Source of the DNA: a virus
Lineage: Duplodnaviria; Caudoviricetes
Length of the DNA stretch: 64,000 bases
IMG/VR virus record: IMGVR_UViG_3300003324_000863
Coordinates: 2,170-66,169 of that record
Direction: 5' to 3' (one strand)
Shown here: in pieces, positions 10,117 through 61,966 of the stretch
How positions within the stretch are numbered: position 1 is the first letter of the stretch
How the letters are laid out: the number at the start of each line of letters is the position of its first letter
Notes under the pieces: generated by a model
The model's input: the letters and a program-made list of their open reading frames with translations, nothing else
The model's database searches: none
What the model was told of the DNA's origin: nothing
Position numbers and translations under genes: made by a program

Positions 10117-10371
10117 TGACCCAGTATACAGGCCGCACCTGCCCAGACAAAGGACTGCGCCCTCGGTCCTCTGGTGTCGCCTTACGTCAAGTAGAACCAT
10201 AACAACTCCTCCGTTTTCCTGCATACTTCCTCACCGTTTCACCATGTATAATCTGGTCAAATTTTGGCTAACTCCCCAAACCCGGGCCAATCCGTGCCTG
10301 GAGTCCTTCATCTTCCGAACGATCTGACCCAGTACCCGACCCACTATCTGACCCAGTATCCTGACCCAGCA
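10117..10371. repeat. putative integrase arm-type sites and attP region
   Basis: YGACCCAS(T/C)A at 10117, 10325, 10337, 10349 and 10362, flanking an AT-rich spacer at 10195-10267. Confidence 0.55.
10145..10186 (-). repeat. dispersed element copy S2 (type B, short)
   Basis: CGTAAGGCGACACCAGAGGACCGAGGGC-GCA-GTCCTTTGTCT. Confidence 0.8.
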
Positions 10372-11464
10372 TTCGGTTCATCGACTCCGCGACGCGCTGC
10401 CGGCTCTCGTCGTACCAGTGACCATACAGGTTCGCCGTGAGCCCGATGTTCGAGTGCCCCAGCGTCCGTGCCACATCATTCAAGGATAGCCCCGAGGCCA
10501 GGAGAAGGGACGCCGCCAGGTGTCTCAGGCCATGGAAGGTCTGCCTGGGGAGCCCCGCCTTCCTGAGGATGTGCTGCATGTGCTTGGTCATCATCGCGGG
10601 GTGGATCGGCTTCCCCCGACGCACCCCACGGAAGAGCAGCTCGTCCTCCGACTCGGGGTGCCGCTTCTCCTTCAGCTTTACCAGCAGATCCCAGGTGAGC
10701 TTCGGGAGTCCCACGACGCGCCGGCTCCTCCGGGTCTTGGCATACTCCTTGACGACGAACTCCTTGTCGATCAGGTGCATCGTCCGGTTCACGGAGACGG
10801 TCCCCTTCTCCAGATCAATGTCCCGCCAGGTGAGAGCCCGCGCCTCCGCGGAGCGTAGCCCACAGGTCGCAGCGATCACGTAGCACAAGCCCAGCCAGTC
10901 GTCTTGGATCACGGCAAGGAACTTCCGTGCCTCCTCAGGCGTCAGGGGCTTCATCTCCTTTCCCTTGACCTGGGGCGCCTCTGCCAGCTTCGCCACGTTC
11001 CGGGTCACCACGCCCCACTTCAGCGCGTGGTTCAGGGCCATCCGCAGGACCGCGCGGTGCTGGCCGATGGTCGACTTCGCCAGGCCCCACTCGAGCTTCT
11101 TGGCAATGTAGGTCTCGACGTGGAGGGGCGTCAGCGCCCGGAGCCGGTACGCACCCAGCCCCGGGATGAGGTGGTGGGTCACGATGCTGGAGAAGGTCTG
11201 GTAGGAGTTCGCCTCGACATGGTTCTTCCGAAGGGCGAGCCAGTCCGTGAGGAAGTCGGCCAGGGTCGGGTCTTCACTCAGCTCGCCCTGCAGCTCGGTC
11301 GGCGGCGTTCCCGTCCCCGCCCGCAGCAGCTCGATGGCCTGGTGGGCCTCCGATTCCGTCCGCCCGTAGACCGAGTGGAGGGTACCCCCGATCGTGATCC
11401 GACCTTCATACCGCCCATCCGGCCGGAGGCGAACGCTCCCTGTGCCCTTAGCCCTCCTGGCCAT
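10268..11464 (-). CDS. int: tyrosine integrase
   Basis: N-terminal arm-binding GSVRLRPDGRYE; catalytic residues in GLRSAE, HGLRH, LGHS and LYGH. Confidence 0.95.
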   Translation of the reverse strand: MARRAKGTGSVRLRPDGRYEGRITIGGTLHSVYGRTESEAHQAIELLRAGTGTPPTELQGELSEDPTLADFLTDWLALRKNHVEANSYQTFSSIVTHHLIPGLGAYRLRALTPLHVETYIAKKLEWGLAKSTIGQHRAVLRMALNHALKWGVVTRNVAKLAEAPQVKGKEMKPLTPEEARKFLAVIQDDWLGLCYVIAATCGLRSAEARALTWRDIDLEKGTVSVNRTMHLIDKEFVVKEYAKTRRSRRVVGLPKLTWDLLVKLKEKRHPESEDELLFRGVRRGKPIHPAMMTKHMQHILRKAGLPRQTFHGLRHLAASLLLASGLSLNDVARTLGHSNIGLTANLYGHWYDESRQRVAESMNRMLGQDTGSDSGSGTGSDRSEDEGLQARIGPGLGS

Positions 11465-32048: not shown

Positions 32049-32278
32049 AAGCAGTCGAGGAGCTTCTCGGCCGCCGCCCGGTACGCCAGGTCCACTGTCT
32101 CCTCGACCGAGAGGTCCAGGGCCCGGACCAGGTCCACCGTTGTGTGAATCGTGGGCCGCCGTCTCCCCGCTTCCAGCTCCCGGACCAGGGACTCGGAGAC
32201 CGACGCGGCAACGGCGAGGTCCGCCTGCCCCCACTTCCTGGCCTTCCGTAGCTCCCTCATCTTGCGGCCAAAGCGCAC
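32045..32278 (-). CDS. XRE-family HTH regulator
   Basis: RELRKARKWGQADLA..VSESLVRELEAGRRRP; GGAGGTG RBS. Confidence 0.85.
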   Translation of the reverse strand: MRFGRKMRELRKARKWGQADLAVAASVSESLVRELEAGRRRPTIHTTVDLVRALDLSVEETVDLAYRAAAEKLLDCF

Positions 32279-33015
32279 TCGATCACCTCCTGGCAGAGAT
32301 CGCTGGCCCGCTTGTAGTCCGGTTCCCCGGGGAGCGGTGAGCAGATGTACGCTTCCTTCAGGGCATCGAGGAGTCGTTCCGCTTCCGCGAACGCCCGCTC
32401 CTCGTCCCATTTCCCAGCCCGGATATCTCTCAACTCCTCCGCGTCTGCATGTCGGAAGACCTGGAGTTCCCCGTCGGTGAGGAACTCGACCCCCATCCGC
32501 AGGACTCGGATCGCGTGCATCATGTCCTTCCATGGGAACGGGGGCCAGGTGTCGTATCCACCACACGGAGGACACGGGGCCTCTGCGCAACACCGATCGC
32601 AGCGCTGGAATGGCCGGTTCTTCATCCGCCGCAGGTGCCCGGTGGCCATGTCCTTGAACGCGCCGTAGACGTGCCGGCCCACGAAGACGTCCCGGTTCTT
32701 CCGGAGGAGATCCCCGGCATCCGTAGTCCGCACCGCGTACATCGGGACCCAGAGTACCTCGAGCACCGATGGGTTCCCTTTAAGCGCTAAACTGAAGAAC
32801 TTCCGGCACTCATACACGACGATGTCGAACTCGCCCTCCTTGATCTCCTTTGTCCCTTCAGCTCCGTACCGCTCCAGCCCCGCGTAGTGCGAGAGGGGCG
32901 GCACGCAGATGGACAGAACGTCGAAGTCACTCGTCTCCGTCGCCAGGTTGTACGCCCGGCTCCCGCGTGGGCAGGAATAGATAGACCACTCTCCGAACCC
33001 CGGATCGTCGATCAT
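32257..33015 (-). CDS. Pol-beta-superfamily nucleotidyltransferase (RlaP/YcgL-like)
   Basis: GSRAYNLATETSDFD, LKGNPSVLEVLW and KDMMHAIR..L..IRAGKW. Confidence 0.85.
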   Translation of the reverse strand: MIDDPGFGEWSIYSCPRGSRAYNLATETSDFDVLSICVPPLSHYAGLERYGAEGTKEIKEGEFDIVVYECRKFFSLALKGNPSVLEVLWVPMYAVRTTDAGDLLRKNRDVFVGRHVYGAFKDMATGHLRRMKNRPFQRCDRCCAEAPCPPCGGYDTWPPFPWKDMMHAIRVLRMGVEFLTDGELQVFRHADAEELRDIRAGKWDEERAFAEAERLLDALKEAYICSPLPGEPDYKRASDLCQEVIECALAAR

Positions 33016-33203
33016 CGTCCCCTCCTTCTCGACGCATGCCCGGTGTGGTACGCCGAGCAGAAGGCGCACTTGTACACCGACATCACGTCGTTCTTCCCCC
33101 GGTCCCGATTGAGCGCACGGGCGTGCAGGTATGCTGAGGTTGCGCTCGGGTGCTTGAACTTCCCTTCGCAGGACTTGCGTCGGACATGCCGCTTGGATGC
33201 CAC
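33012..33203 (-). CDS. small basic Zn-finger protein
   Basis: C..K..YKCAFCSAYHTGH; AGGAGG RBS. Confidence 0.7.
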   Translation of the reverse strand: MASKRHVRRKSCEGKFKHPSATSAYLHARALNRDRGKNDVMSVYKCAFCSAYHTGHASRRRGR

Positions 33204-50469: not shown

Positions 50470-50901
50470 CTAGGCTGCCTCTGGATCAGGCAGCGGATCG
50501 ATCCCTTCCGGCCACTTGTCCCTCGGCACGTCATGCCAGAAGGAACATCGGGGCCAGGATCGCAGCCGTTCCGGTTCCTTCGGCGCATCCGGCCCGTAGA
50601 AGTTCTGGTACCAGGGGAAGCCGGCGCAGATCTCCGGCTTACGATCCTGGGCCATGCACTCGTGCGTCTCACGGTCGTACTGATCGCACTCGTAGTACGG
50701 TCCGGACCCCTGGAACCCGAGTCGTTCGGACGCTGTCTTCTTACTGATCCGGTGCCAGTGTTCCCGGAGGAACGGGCCATCCGTCTTGATGATGTTCCCG
50801 TCCCCATCGACCGTAGCATTGATCCCGTCGTGCATGTCCTTCTTCAGCCGAGGGAAGTAGATGGCATCGCAGCACATCCCACACTTCGCACATCCGGTCA
50901 T
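50470..50901 (-). CDS. YkgJ-like CxxCxxCC metal-cluster protein 1
   Basis: CAKCGMCC..C..C..KPEICAGFPW. Confidence 0.85.
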   Translation of the reverse strand: MTGCAKCGMCCDAIYFPRLKKDMHDGINATVDGDGNIIKTDGPFLREHWHRISKKTASERLGFQGSGPYYECDQYDRETHECMAQDRKPEICAGFPWYQNFYGPDAPKEPERLRSWPRCSFWHDVPRDKWPEGIDPLPDPEAA

Positions 50902-51632: not shown

Positions 51633-52040
51633 CTAGCTATAGATCTTTGGCACGTTCGGGTCGGGGAGTGGATCGGTCCCCGCGAGCCACTGCTGCTTTG
51701 GCAAGTCATGCCAATAACTACACTTGGGCCACCACCGGATCCGCTGGGCCTCGGGCTGGCCGGTGTACCAGGGGAACCCCGTGCAGACGTAGGGCTTCTC
51801 CCAGCCCGCCATGCACTGGTGGGTCTCCTTGTTGTACTTGTCGCACTCGTAGGTGCTCATCCCCTTCAGCTCCTCCTCGGGGATGTTCGGGTTCCGCTTC
51901 AGCACCTCGGCCCTGGAGATCGGATGCCAGTGCTTGTTGACGAAGCCCCGGGATGGGTCACCATAGGCCCAGTTGGACTTCGGCTTGTCGACGACGATCG
52001 CTTCGCAACACGACCCACACTGCGCACACCCGGCCCCCAT
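51633..52040 (-). CDS. YkgJ-like CxxCxxCC metal-cluster protein 2
   Basis: CAQCGSCC..KPYVCTGFPW; paralog of 50470-50901. Confidence 0.85.
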   Translation of the reverse strand: MGAGCAQCGSCCEAIVVDKPKSNWAYGDPSRGFVNKHWHPISRAEVLKRNPNIPEEELKGMSTYECDKYNKETHQCMAGWEKPYVCTGFPWYTGQPEAQRIRWWPKCSYWHDLPKQQWLAGTDPLPDPNVPKIYS

Positions 52041-58730: not shown

Positions 58731-61011
58731 GGTAGACCTCCAAGGGTTCCTGATCGACCCAGTTCGGGCCCGCCGTCACCTCGACGACTAGGGGCACCAT
58801 CACCTCAGGAGCCCCGCACTCTGCTCCGATCCGCTGCATCGCTTCGCCCACCTCCTTCACCGCCCCTATGGGCACCTCAGCATTGACCTCATCGTGAACC
58901 TGGAGCACCGGCACTGCATCGTAGTAGTCGAACACCTCCTGCATCTGGGCCATCCACCGCTTGATGATCCCCGCTTCCGTTGCCTGGATGGGCATGTTCG
59001 CCGCCTCCCTCAAGGCTGCCGCCTTCTCCCGGTAGATCGGGCTGAAGTACTGGGGGTAGTAGTTCATCCATCCGTACTTGCTCTCCACATACCCATGCAT
59101 CTCGAGGAACCGTTCCACCGTCTCGGGCCACTCCAGGAAGGCGGGCATCCTGGTCTTGATGGTCTTGAGGAACGCATCCGCCTCCCCTGCCGGGACGCCC
59201 GCTGTGACCGCCAGCTTATCGATCGCTACTCCGAACATGACTGCGAACAGGCTGTTCTTCGCCGGCTTCCGATCGATCCCGAGCATATCCGCCGCAGCCT
59301 GATGGACGTCCTGGCCCGTTCGATACGCTTCCAGAAGGACGGGCTCCTGGGTGTAGTCCGCGAAGACCCGAACCTGTAGCTGAGAAAAGTCACCGTGTAC
59401 CCAGACGTGGCCGGGTCGAGCGACAAATGCACGTCGTAGTTGCTTGCCAAGATCAGTCCGTGCCGGAACGTTCTGCAGATTAGGCTTGCTCGAGCTGAGC
59501 CGATCCGTATCTGTAACTGTCTGGTGGTACTGGGTGTGGACCCGGCCCTCGCCATCCCGCAGAGCCAGGAGCTTTCGGACGTAAGTGGATCGGAACTTGA
59601 TGAGGCCACGTCGATCGAGAACCGCCTGAGCAAACTCCCGAACATCCTCGCCCAGCTCACCCTTGACCACCTCCTCCAATACAGCCTCATCGACGCAGAT
59701 CTTCCCGGTCTCGGTGAACTTCTTCGGCACCCATCCCCTGGCCATGAGCCACTCGGCTACCTGCTCGTTGGACCCGGGGTTCTCGATGTCCGCGTTCGCT
59801 TTCAGGAGACCGTCACAATCATCGAGCGCTTCGTTGGCCCACTCTTCCAGACCTGCAAGGATATCCGGATCGACCAGCACCCCGGCAGATTCCATGCGGT
59901 GAAGGATCGGGACCACGGGCTTCTCGAACTCCAGGTAGTAACGTCGCCTGGGCGGGTCCCGATCCAGGAGTTCTCGAATGATCTCCCAGCACCGGGCAGT
60001 AACCACCGCGTCAAGAATCGCATACTCCACCCCTGACTCGTAATCCTCTTCCAGGACCTGACTGAACTTCCGGCCCTTAGCCACCTCGTTGAACGTCCGC
60101 ATCTGCATCCGGGTCAGCTTCGGGCCCAGCTCCTTCAGTGCGTGGGGGAGCCGGAGCACGTACGCGGCGAGGAGTACGTCCTCCCAGTTCACCTCGTCGA
60201 ACCCGAGCCCCATCTTCGGGAGGTCTGCCCGGATATGAGCGAACGCGGTGGTCTTCTCTCTGGCCCGGAGCTTCTCCTGGATGAACGGGAGCTGGTCCGC
60301 AGTCCAGAGGTACCCGCACCACGGCGCCGCTACCTGTACCGACACCAGCGTATCCTGCCCGGCCACGTCCCCCTTGTCCGCGGTATCGTACTCCGTGTCC
60401 ACCCCGAGCACGTCGGCCGTCCAGTTGGCGTACTGCGTCCACGGTTCTGGCTCGGGCAGCTGCTCCGGTGTCACCCCGACCAGTTCCTCCACGATCCGTC
60501 TGATCTCCGCTTCCCATGCCGTCCGCTTCCCCGGACTCCGGAGGATGTACGCCGGGTGGTAGACGTGGGCCACCATCCCCTCGTACCCCGTGTCCTCGAG
60601 CACCTTGGCCAAGCCCTTCTCACTGACCTCACCAAGACATAGGATGAGTCGTGGCTTCAGCTTCAGGATCTCGTAGGCCAGGTACGGGGAGCAGTTCTCC
60701 ACCTCCTCGGCCGTCGGCTTCCGATCGCCCCCGCCTTTCGGGTTCTTCCCGGGGTAGCACCGCACGGCGTTCGTGTACCAGGTGCTGAGAAGTGGGAGGT
60801 GCTGCTCCATGCAAACGGTGCCGATGATTGTCGCCAACACTGGCCGGATGAGCTGCCCCGCCTGTCCTGCGAACGGGTATCCTAGCTGGTCTTCCGTCCA
60901 TCCCGGTGCCTGGCCGATGCACAGGATGTCCACCTTCTCCGGCGGGACCGGGCTCACCACCCTACTCCTGGTCTCGCACATGCTGGGGCACAAAGAACAC
61001 GTCTGATTCAT
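58714..61011 (-). CDS. family A DNA polymerase with N-terminal family-4-like uracil-DNA glycosylase domain
   Basis: UDG: CxxC, GQAPG..ED..PF, HPAY. Exonuclease: DTE, YAILD. Polymerase: RLSSSKPNLQN, DFSQ, K..F..FG, VHDE. Confidence 0.92.
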   Translation of the reverse strand: MNQTCSLCPSMCETRSRVVSPVPPEKVDILCIGQAPGWTEDQLGYPFAGQAGQLIRPVLATIIGTVCMEQHLPLLSTWYTNAVRCYPGKNPKGGGDRKPTAEEVENCSPYLAYEILKLKPRLILCLGEVSEKGLAKVLEDTGYEGMVAHVYHPAYILRSPGKRTAWEAEIRRIVEELVGVTPEQLPEPEPWTQYANWTADVLGVDTEYDTADKGDVAGQDTLVSVQVAAPWCGYLWTADQLPFIQEKLRAREKTTAFAHIRADLPKMGLGFDEVNWEDVLLAAYVLRLPHALKELGPKLTRMQMRTFNEVAKGRKFSQVLEEDYESGVEYAILDAVVTARCWEIIRELLDRDPPRRRYYLEFEKPVVPILHRMESAGVLVDPDILAGLEEWANEALDDCDGLLKANADIENPGSNEQVAEWLMARGWVPKKFTETGKICVDEAVLEEVVKGELGEDVREFAQAVLDRRGLIKFRSTYVRKLLALRDGEGRVHTQYHQTVTDTDRLSSSKPNLQNVPARTDLGKQLRRAFVARPGHVWVHGDFSQLQVRVFADYTQEPVLLEAYRTGQDVHQAAADMLGIDRKPAKNSLFAVMFGVAIDKLAVTAGVPAGEADAFLKTIKTRMPAFLEWPETVERFLEMHGYVESKYGWMNYYPQYFSPIYREKAAALREAANMPIQATEAGIIKRWMAQMQEVFDYYDAVPVLQVHDEVNAEVPIGAVKEVGEAMQRIGAECGAPEVMVPLVVEVTAGPNWVDQEPLEVYLAQAG

Positions 61012-61255: not shown

Positions 61256-61518
61256 CCGTGGATCTCGCGGCGGATCACGTAGTCGACGGACCGTTGCAGC
61301 CCGAGTATCCGGATGGCCTGCTCCAGGTCCCTGATCCGCTGCGCTGCTTCCATGGCCAGGCTTGCGGGCACATGGTCGCCGGTACAGACCGAGTCACCGG
61401 CATTCCAGTCATCCGGGTATGTTGGGTAGCCGAGGGCCTTGCCGAGGATCTGGTCGATCTCATGGTCGGACCTGATCCAGGCCTCGAGCACCTCTTCCTT
61501 CGTCTCGTCTCCCCTCAT
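61252..61518 (-). CDS. hypothetical protein
   Basis: Coupled ORF. Confidence 0.6.
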   Translation of the reverse strand: MRGDETKEEVLEAWIRSDHEIDQILGKALGYPTYPDDWNAGDSVCTGDHVPASLAMEAAQRIRDLEQAIRILGLQRSVDYVIRREIHG

Positions 61519-61805
61519 ACGTGCCGCCCCACGCCCGTCCCATCAGCGATCCACTTCCGGGCACGGTTCTTCCGCATCTTCTGGTCGATCGCCTCGTGCA
61601 GGTCCAGGCCCATGGTGCTGGCCAGCTGGTACAGGACGATTACCACATCGGCCATCTCCTCGGCCACATAGTCATCCGGCTTGGTCTTGGCCACAGCGGT
61701 CAGCAGCTCGGCCATCTCCTCGTTCGCACGGGCCGCTGCGACGATGGGCTCCGGACTCCCGAAGGTCACCGTCGTCCAGGCGGCTACGCTATCCTGTGTC
61801 TCCAT
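61515..61805 (-). CDS. MazG-like NTP pyrophosphohydrolase
   Basis: W...TFG..EEMAEL..EEMADV..KMRKNRARKW. Confidence 0.85.
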   Translation of the reverse strand: METQDSVAAWTTVTFGSPEPIVAAARANEEMAELLTAVAKTKPDDYVAEEMADVVIVLYQLASTMGLDLHEAIDQKMRKNRARKWIADGTGVGRHV

Positions 61806-61966
61806 CACTCCTCCTCCAGTCGGCAGGCCCCATGCTGGCAGCTCGTCCAACACCGCCGACAGATCCCCGTGCCGTTCGGGTTCTGGGTCTCGTACTCCTG
61901 TCCGCAGCAGCCGCAGAGCATCAGGTGCCAAGGCTGCTCCGTCTTGCGGTAGTCCCGCCGCCTCAT
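61805..61966 (-). CDS. small Cys-rich protein
   Basis: CGCCG..CRRC. Confidence 0.45.
   Translation of the reverse strand: MRRRDYRKTEQPWHLMLCGCCGQEYETQNPNGTGICRRCWTSCQHGACRLEEE

Follow-up and report, generated by a model that had tools for sequence, protein, structure and literature searches.

The phage polymerase locus

The DNA analysed here (the window) is a 64,000-nucleotide stretch from a virus (Duplodnaviria; Caudoviricetes), bases 2170-66169 of the 66,169-base IMG/VR record IMGVR_UViG_3300003324_000863, which is listed as linear, with a completeness of about 60%. Its minus strand carries a gene for a 765-residue protein, P0001, in which a UDG (uracil-DNA glycosylase) domain, a 3'-5' exonuclease domain and a family A DNA polymerase (PolA) domain follow one another (Table 1). 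The polymerase domain has Gln in place of the Glu that forms the steric gate, and this unusual active site is the subject of the present report. The gene product is best explained as the replicative UDG-exonuclease-PolA of an uncultured, temperate, tailed phage.

The start codon (ATG at 61011) is supported by the N-terminal CxxC (C5, C8), which aligns with that of the relative P0003 and of solved UDGs. The NCBIfam Pol I and UDG_fam4 models also match P0001, every score lying under the model's own cut-off. The exonuclease residues are present (ExoI D205/E207, ExoII D263, ExoIII Y330/D334) and are conserved in both alignments of relatives (A1, A2); the relatives P0005-P0007 carry the PF01612 annotation.

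Table 1. Features discussed in the text, in window positions
Feature	Positions	Strand	Basis and remarks
UDG / 3'-5' exonuclease / family A DNA polymerase fusion, P0001, 765 residues	58714-61011	-	Open reading frame and translation; Pfam PF03167, PF01612 (weak), PF00476
Family A polymerase domain, residues 404-752	58756-59802	-	PF00476, 252.8 bits against a cut-off of 34.3; phmmer to Klenow, E 6.7e-59
Motif A, DFSQLQVR	59368-59391	-	D541 = D705 kept; Q546 in place of steric-gate E710
Motif B / O helix, RKPAKNSLFAVMFG	59230-59271	-	R581, K585, F589 = R754, K758, F762 kept; F593 in place of Y766
Helix Q motif, NMPIQATEAG	58969-58998	-	N672, Q676 = N845, Q849 kept; E679 in place of A852
Motif C, LQVHDEV	58885-58905	-	H706, D707, E708 = H881, D882, E883; intact
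TDRLSS (Klenow TGRLSS)	59491-59508	-	R504 = R668
3'-5' exonuclease domain, residues 200-349	59965-60414	-	DNA_pol_A_exo1 PF01612, E 1.3e-3, 19.1 bits, under the 23.6-bit cut-off
Family-4 UDG domain, residues 24-167 by Pfam	60511-60942	-	PF03167, 86 bits against a cut-off of 24.3; alignment to solved UDGs from residues 3-5
UDG motif 1, GQAPG (Gln34; Glu in family 4)	60901-60915	-	Aligned to GEGPG/GEAPG of 1UI0 and 4ZBX
MazG-like NTP pyrophosphohydrolase	61515-61931	-	Weak matches to dATP/dGTP pyrophosphohydrolase family; two genes upstream of polymerase
Integrase	10268-11464	-	Adjoins the DGQHR-domain / DndB-like gene
DGQHR-domain / DndB-like protein, 477 residues	11448-12881	-	TIGR03187, 74.8 bits; Pfam DndB, 93 bits
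RlaP-family nucleotidyltransferase (RNA repair pathway, Pol beta-like)	32257-33069	-	Pfam, 90.8 bits
Small CxxCxxCC protein	50470-50901	-	Putative Zn/Fe-chelating
Small CxxCxxCC protein, paralogue	51633-52040	-	Putative Zn/Fe-chelating

Substitutions in the polymerase active site

Among solved structures, the best match to P0001 by sequence is the Klenow fragment (E 6.7e-59), at only about 30% identity. We numbered residues from the HMMER alignment of P0001 to Klenow chains (chain index + 323); since this offset reproduces D705, E710, R754, K758, F762, Y766, Q849 and D882, we consider the numbering checked. The two proteins share D705, R754, K758, F762, N845, Q849, H881, D882 and E883, together with the DxE...D...YxxxD residues of the exonuclease. 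P0001 differs from Klenow by E710 to Gln, Y766 to Phe and A852 to Glu. In motif A, D541-F-S-Q-L-Q546-V-R pairs with Klenow D705-Y-S-Q-I-E710-L-R, and the Q546 codon is CAG (59374-59376); the F593 codon is TTC (59233-59235). The third residue, E679 (codon GAA, 58975-58977), lies three residues past the minor-groove residue Q849, where Klenow QGTAAD has become QATEAG. An earlier note on this DNA, made from the sequence alone, had reported the change of the gate Glu to Gln with the position of its codon, the change of the O-helix Tyr to Phe and the intact catalytic Asp residues, and the Klenow alignment and the codons agree with it on all of these. It had also listed the TDRLSS change, which is real; we do not count it in the coupled set described below, because the position varies (G, D, N or S) in the clade under either gate.

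P0001 has the features by which family A is recognized, namely a PF00476 score above the cut-off, the carboxylates of motifs A and C, and the O-helix Arg, Lys and Phe. It lacks the gate Glu braced by Tyr766. Its assignment to family A stands, as the gate Glu/Tyr766 pair is a trait conserved within the family, not a criterion of homology.

Residues 710, 766 and 852 change together

We scanned all columns of the polymerase domain for residues common to seven clades with a Gln gate and rare elsewhere. This returned one further site, E679 of P0001, equivalent to Klenow A852. The strength of the association was estimated on a homology-derived set that was not biased by motif (233 PolAs, of which 13 have the Gln gate; Fisher p values are uncorrected for kinship). 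Glu852 was present in all 13 Gln-gate rows and in 3 of the 220 others (p 8e-19), and Phe766 in 10 of the 13 and in 8 of the 220 (p 1e-10). The covariation of Gln and Phe that the earlier note had proposed to look for across phage PolA sequences does exist and exceeds chance; the note had treated the changes as a pair and had missed the third, obligate partner, Ala852 to Glu.

Most PolAs in a wider table of 276 rows have the 710/766/852 combination E/Y/A (172 rows), followed by Q/F/E (53), E/Y/S (14), E/Y/G (10) and E/F/A (6). Rarer combinations were E/Y/Q (4), D/Y/V (3), and Q/Y/E, E/F/E, E/Y/C and E/Y/N (2 each); H/Y/E, Q/K/E, D/Y/S, E/F/S and E/Y/V occurred in single rows, as did one with a gap at 852. 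All 56 Gln-gate rows of this table have Glu at 852. When only the gate and position 766 were considered, 194 proteins from two homology searches gave E/Y 175 times, Q/F 11, E/F 3, Q/Y 2, and Q/K, H/Y and D/Y once each. The mirror form of the pair, E710/Y766/Q852, was seen in four rows; Glu710 and Glu852 occur together only twice, both times with Phe766, and the sole row with a His gate has Glu852. Such intermediate and mirror forms are found among P0093, P0122, P0104, P0137, P0175, P0188 and P0043; the E/F/E proteins are P0093 and P0122, which have the length of bacterial Pol I, and the H/Y/E protein is P0043.

K599, L545, N586 and T554 were considered as further coupled columns and rejected. 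They also occur in members with the Glu gate (20-25%), and follow the clade rather than the gate.

The closest relative of P0001, P0003 (72% identity, from another assembly), has the same Gln, Phe and Glu, whereas Glu and Tyr stand in the relatives that follow (P0004-P0007, 38-51% identity). To see the variant among other viruses we scanned IMG/VR with a degenerate pattern of DNA letters that encodes D[FY]SQxQxRxxA; it found 48 stretches. All 48 lie in PolA reading frames (E 1e-27 to 5e-51 with a hidden Markov model of the clade), all 48 encode Phe766, and Glu852 is present in each of the 45 that could be read at that position. Homology queries of IMG/VR did not find the variant: the query with P0001 alone gave no close relatives, and the query with the clade alignment gave 60 loci without a Gln gate, the 47 reading frames with a readable motif A having Glu (43) or Asp (4).

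The Gln gate arose repeatedly

We built trees of the polymerase domain from which the motif A and motif B columns, and in later trees also the helix Q columns, had been removed. On a FastTree of 257 rows the Gln gate falls into seven separate clades. On a larger one (315 rows under 85% identity, bacterial sequences included) the change to Gln occurs 12 times. Nine independent pairs could be drawn on supported branches; Glu852 changed in the same direction as the gate in about nine of the nine (sign test p about 0.004), and Phe766 in 5-6 of the nine, with at most one opposite (p about 0.06).

An IQ-TREE analysis (LG+G4, quick search, 65 rows) placed P0001 and P0003, both Q/F/E, beside P0004, which is E/Y/A, with 99% SH-aLRT support. 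The three lie inside a UDG-PolA clade (99%), and the other Gln groups lie in other supported clades. Constraining the 13 Gln rows of the UDG-PolA clade to a single clade, a group named after the tree had been seen, cost 200 units of log-likelihood (p-AU 4e-47). The Gln gate with Glu852 has evolved repeatedly, about 12 times.

Bacterial Pol I with the same pair

The same motif A pattern was used to scan one genome per prokaryote species and gave at least 120 stretches. Among the 120 matches listed (L111-L230), 112 are PolA reading frames, and eight are chance matches outside PolA; ten of the PolA frames end before motif B or helix Q. The 103 listed frames that could be read at all three positions are Q/Y/E (99) or Q/F/E (4), so that Glu852 is again invariant (103 of 103). 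Most of the listed carriers are full-length Pol I of about 930 residues from metagenome-assembled genomes whose titles name Alphaproteobacteria, Candidatus Enterousia or Rickettsiales; candidate phyla radiation (CPR) and Desulfomonilaceae records account for a few.

The gut alphaproteobacterial enzymes resemble P0001 in having the Gln gate and Glu852. They differ from it in that they have a 5' nuclease and no UDG, mostly keep Tyr766 and usually have Phe or Tyr before the new Glu, and they form a separate clade on the tree. In all four gut alphaproteobacterial genomes checked (0.8-1.0 Mb), the Gln-gate frame is the sole match to PF00476; loci L116, L129, L135 and L146 are examples from such small genomes. 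As Q/Y/E is found in the only PolA of a genome, Gln710 with Glu852 is compatible with ordinary cellular DNA synthesis. The change of Tyr766 to Phe is thus a frequent, mostly viral third step, and not a requirement.

Comparison with known polymerases

Family A polymerases are commonly treated as having an invariant gate Glu. Neither a natural Gln gate nor its A852E partner was described in the literature searched, which left out most subscription journals. Hohlbein et al. 2013 (PMC3715850) studied the same two substitutions as in P0001, E710Q and Y766F, engineered singly in Klenow; the natural Gln-gate enzymes always add A852E. No test of Klenow A852E was found in the literature searched. The variant is best regarded as an active-site form of family A that arose by convergent evolution and had not been described before, defined by the pair Gln710/Glu852 and with Phe766 as the usual third residue in viruses.

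The UDG-PolA fusions described before include an N4-like group (cluster #17, with a dead UDG) and an SPO1-like one (Czernecki et al. 2023, PMC10201439). For the SP15-like polymerases of phiLo and YerA41, cryo-EM shows that the UDG domain reads template dU ahead of synthesis (Missoury et al. 2026, PMC13697223). P0001 has the same order of N-terminal family-4 UDG, exonuclease and PolA, and keeps the motif-2 His as the SPO1- and SP15-like proteins do (PMC10201439, PMC13697223). With 765 residues it is shorter than the SP15-like enzymes of YerA41 and phiLo (more than 1000 residues), and lacks both of their large inserts as well as their C-terminal domain, which has about 80 residues; to 9qhs_A (1142 residues) it has a weak match, E 1.5e-3, in the UDG part only. 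Unlike the N4-like cluster #17, whose UDG has lost catalytic residues including the His-bearing hairpin, P0001 retains H152. Its Q/F combination also sets it apart from the deposited UDG-PolAs examined, which are E/Y or D/Y, and its UDG domain is about 24-33% identical to that of any deposited phage. The six deposited UDG-PolA phages that we inspected have the gate Glu (five) or Asp (one), Tyr766 in all six, and Gln in none.

The best deposited full-length match to P0001 is 26% identical, and deposited relatives of the Q/F/E PolA at locus L099 do not exceed 25% identity. Neither the deposited matches nor the six inspected phages included a cultured carrier of the three residues.

Two other kinds of UDG-PolA were noted in passing. 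A divergent group (L042, L046, L053, L060 and Microcystis phage Mel-JY34, L234:2992-5424) has a motif A that reads DLDRADLQ, with Asp at the gate position and no terminal Arg, and it has His at the F762 site and Val at 852. In Weizmannia phage Youna2 (L233) and Bacillus phage BSTP12 (L235) the UDG-PolA is annotated as two coding sequences of about 670 and about 190 residues, the shorter with helix Q and motif C; small reading frames lie between the two, FolE/QueE-type 7-deazaguanine genes adjoin, and alignment found motif B in neither piece.

A proposed compensated gate

In Klenow, the hydrogen-bonded pair Y766-E710 is part of the pocket for the nascent base pair (PMC3715850). E710Q is a mutator with a low incorporation rate, and its Kd2 for the correct dTTP is 230 μM, compared with 0.83 μM for the wild type. 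The K2 for closure on rUTP is 0.056 for E710Q, 0.083 for the wild type and 0.16 for E710A (Table 1 of that paper). Y766F is near wild type; it shifts the unliganded enzyme toward the closed state (open-state occupancy 28%) and raises K2 to 9.6.

We propose that the three residues form a compensated architecture, in which the brace of the gate has been rewired with its charge conserved and substrate use is ordinary; we put the probability of this reading at roughly 0.6. In the usual form, the Tyr766 hydroxyl donates a hydrogen bond that braces the gate Glu710. In P0001 the gate is Gln, isosteric with Glu; Q546 would keep the shape of the gate and its position under C2' of the incoming sugar. 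E679, on helix Q, would replace the buried carboxylate and accept a hydrogen bond from the Q546 amide. In this way the site would still have a single buried negative charge and a gate side chain fixed in place, now supplied from the other side of the pocket. The Tyr hydroxyl, the donor to Glu710 in the usual form, would then become dispensable or unfavourable and be lost in phage lineages. The enzyme would remain a proofreading, dNTP-selective replicase, and we infer that its substrate selectivity is unchanged.

The distribution of residues fits this proposal. The four mirror forms with Glu710 and Gln852, the restriction of Glu710 with Glu852 to proteins with Phe766, and the His gate that stands with Glu852 make up the pattern expected of an amide and a carboxylate in contact, with two adjacent carboxylates being avoided. 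That Gln never occurs without Glu852 is explained by the severe defect of E710Q alone in Klenow (PMC3715850). Since the Gln gate and the helix Q Glu evolved together repeatedly, what is conserved would seem to be a carboxylate in the pocket, and not Glu710 itself.

Several points weigh against the compensated gate. The direct contact between Q546 and E679 is predicted from covariation. The sets of Gln-gate sequences from the motif scans were picked by motif A, so that in them only positions 766 and 852 have unbiased coupling counts. The coupling of Phe766 is not universal, as bacteria keep Tyr and the independent pairs give a p of about 0.06. Three further points would also favour the admission of unusual nucleotides, considered below: the MazG-like gene two genes upstream, the queuosine-type or hydroxymethylase genes that deposited UDG-PolA phages often have beside the polymerase, and the incompleteness of the contig (about 60%), as modification genes could sit in the missing 40% or so.

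Alternative explanations

The three residues may instead tune the equilibria of fingers closing, dNTP affinity or the error rate, on the same substrates, for instance to suit replication at low dNTP pools or to raise the mutation rate. The shift of Klenow Y766F to the closed state and the mutator phenotype of E710Q (PMC3715850) speak for such tuning, and convergent fixation in about 12 changes could mean selection over drift. We nevertheless hold it to be unlikely, because the carriers are diverse (a temperate phage, marine-type viral contigs, reduced gut bacteria, CPR) with no common context found, and because E/F/E and Q/Y/E intermediates exist, which implies that the steps can be nearly neutral.

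It is likewise doubtful, in our estimate, that the Q710/E852 site, with or without Phe766, marks a functionally distinct class of polymerase, in which the relocated carboxylate alters how the incoming nucleotide is read at its sugar, its 3'-OH or its minor-groove edge. If this were true, altered discrimination (of rNTPs, or of 2'-/3'-modified or chain-terminating analogues) or a deliberately different fidelity could explain why the combination was fixed convergently about a dozen times, in phages as well as in reduced gut bacteria. The literature on the gate region that we searched had no text on the three-dimensional neighbourhood of A852 (A1105 in Pol gamma).

The earlier note had read the changes as altered sugar or base selectivity, that is, tolerance of rNTPs, synthesis of primers or modified dNTPs; on such a reading the last would be used by a phage whose DNA is non-canonical. 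The changed residues do line the sugar pocket, E710 is the rNTP gate of Klenow, and E710Q alters its handling of nucleotides (PMC3715850); Y766F (motif B position B4) is the only substitution common to both DpoZ clades (Czernecki et al., PMC8599892, PMC10201439), and the UDG domain of P0001 has lost its motif-1 Glu too. Our results, however, do not support the reading, and we regard it as improbable. Gln is isosteric, Klenow E710Q does not close more easily on rUTP than the wild type (PMC3715850), and the Gln gate is found in the only PolA of all four bacterial genomes checked. In four of the six inspected UDG-PolA phages, 7-deazaguanine or pyrimidine-hydroxymethylase genes lie beside the polymerase, and these four keep Tyr766 and an acidic gate. 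The phiVC8 DpoZ also keeps the gate Glu and Ala852. Nor did the viral records with the Gln gate contain the modification genes that we looked for: PurZ (PF00709) was found neither in the 48 Q/F records, nine of which are at least 90% complete, nor in the 66-kb contig, and the 20 largest of the 49 records (the contig and 19 of the 48) had no ThyA-like (PF00303) and no TGT/DpdA (PF01702) gene.

That P0001 is a DpoZ-like polymerase of a phage with a 2-aminoadenine (Z) genome is very improbable. Phe at Tyr766 (F593 in P0001) is a hallmark of both DpoZ clades, and the nearby MazG-like gene has a weak match to dATP/dGTP pyrophosphohydrolases; the Phe, however, is a trait also seen in enzymes other than DpoZ. 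We rejected the identity because P0001 scores 121.5 on the NCBIfam DpoZ model (NF038380), whose cut-off is 500, because phiVC8 DpoZ is E/F/A and not Q/F/E, and because PurZ is absent from the records named above. P0001 also lies in the UDG-PolA clade on the tree, far from phiVC8 DpoZ, and neither PurZ nor an HD-type DatZ was found on the contig, itself about 60% complete.

Finally, the chance that the gate changes come from faulty sequencing or assembly, or from decay of the gene, is negligible: only the rarity of the residues speaks for it, the 765-residue frame is open with every catalytic residue of polymerase and exonuclease kept, and the three residues recur in P0003 and in several hundred other sequences, the Gln and Phe of P0003 confirming the earlier note's argument that a joint change is no sequencing error. 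The sole sequencing run found contains 5% of the words, and its contigs cover four short pieces, all outside the motifs.

The UDG domain and the surroundings of the gene

The UDG domain matches 4ZBX (E 2e-14) and 1UI0 (E 1e-12) by phmmer, and TIGR00758 at 89.5, below the full-length cut-off of 125.3. The Fe-S cysteines C5, C8, C85 and C107 align with those of 4ZBX, and motif 2 is kept (H152-P-A-Y). Motif 1 lacks the Glu of the family-4 pattern GE[AG]PG; the earlier note had pointed to GQAPG in place of GEAPG, and the alignment to 1UI0 and 4ZBX confirms it. P0003 and most relatives have GEAPG, and GQAPG also occurs sporadically in L005 and P0086. In the UDGa of Tth, the motif-1 substitution E41Q lowers k2/Km 888-fold (Xia et al. 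2017, PMC5387724, Table 2). The UDG domain of P0001 retains the Fe-S cysteines and the catalytic His, but with Gln at motif 1 it is probably a much slower glycosylase, and its role may be more that of a module for uracil binding or for structure.

The window also holds structural and lysis genes (large terminase, portal, head protease, tape measure, minor tail protein, GH19 lysin) and, on the minus strand, a replication module with an ERCC4-like nuclease, a GP88-family protein, an AAA_24 ATPase, a PD-(D/E)XK nuclease and a DinG-like helicase. Upstream of the polymerase gene lie a small helix-turn-helix protein and then the MazG-like pyrophosphohydrolase. The integrase gene adjoins that of a DGQHR-domain / DndB-like protein, which could be an accessory gene for defence or DNA modification; no TGT/DpdA partner for it was found on the contig. 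The RlaP-family nucleotidyltransferase gene stands among the structural genes, and the two paralogous small CxxCxxCC proteins are encoded on either side of the GP88-family gene in the replication module.

Implications

The presence of the Gln gate with Glu852 in viruses and in housekeeping Pol I calls for caution in the interpretation of active-site changes, as a substitution at the gate alone is no proof of exotic nucleotide chemistry. The three residues can serve as a marker when PolA diversity is annotated, both in viromes and across a whole gut alphaproteobacterial lineage, and the natural Gln/Glu site is a new scaffold for engineering the sugar pocket of DNA polymerases.

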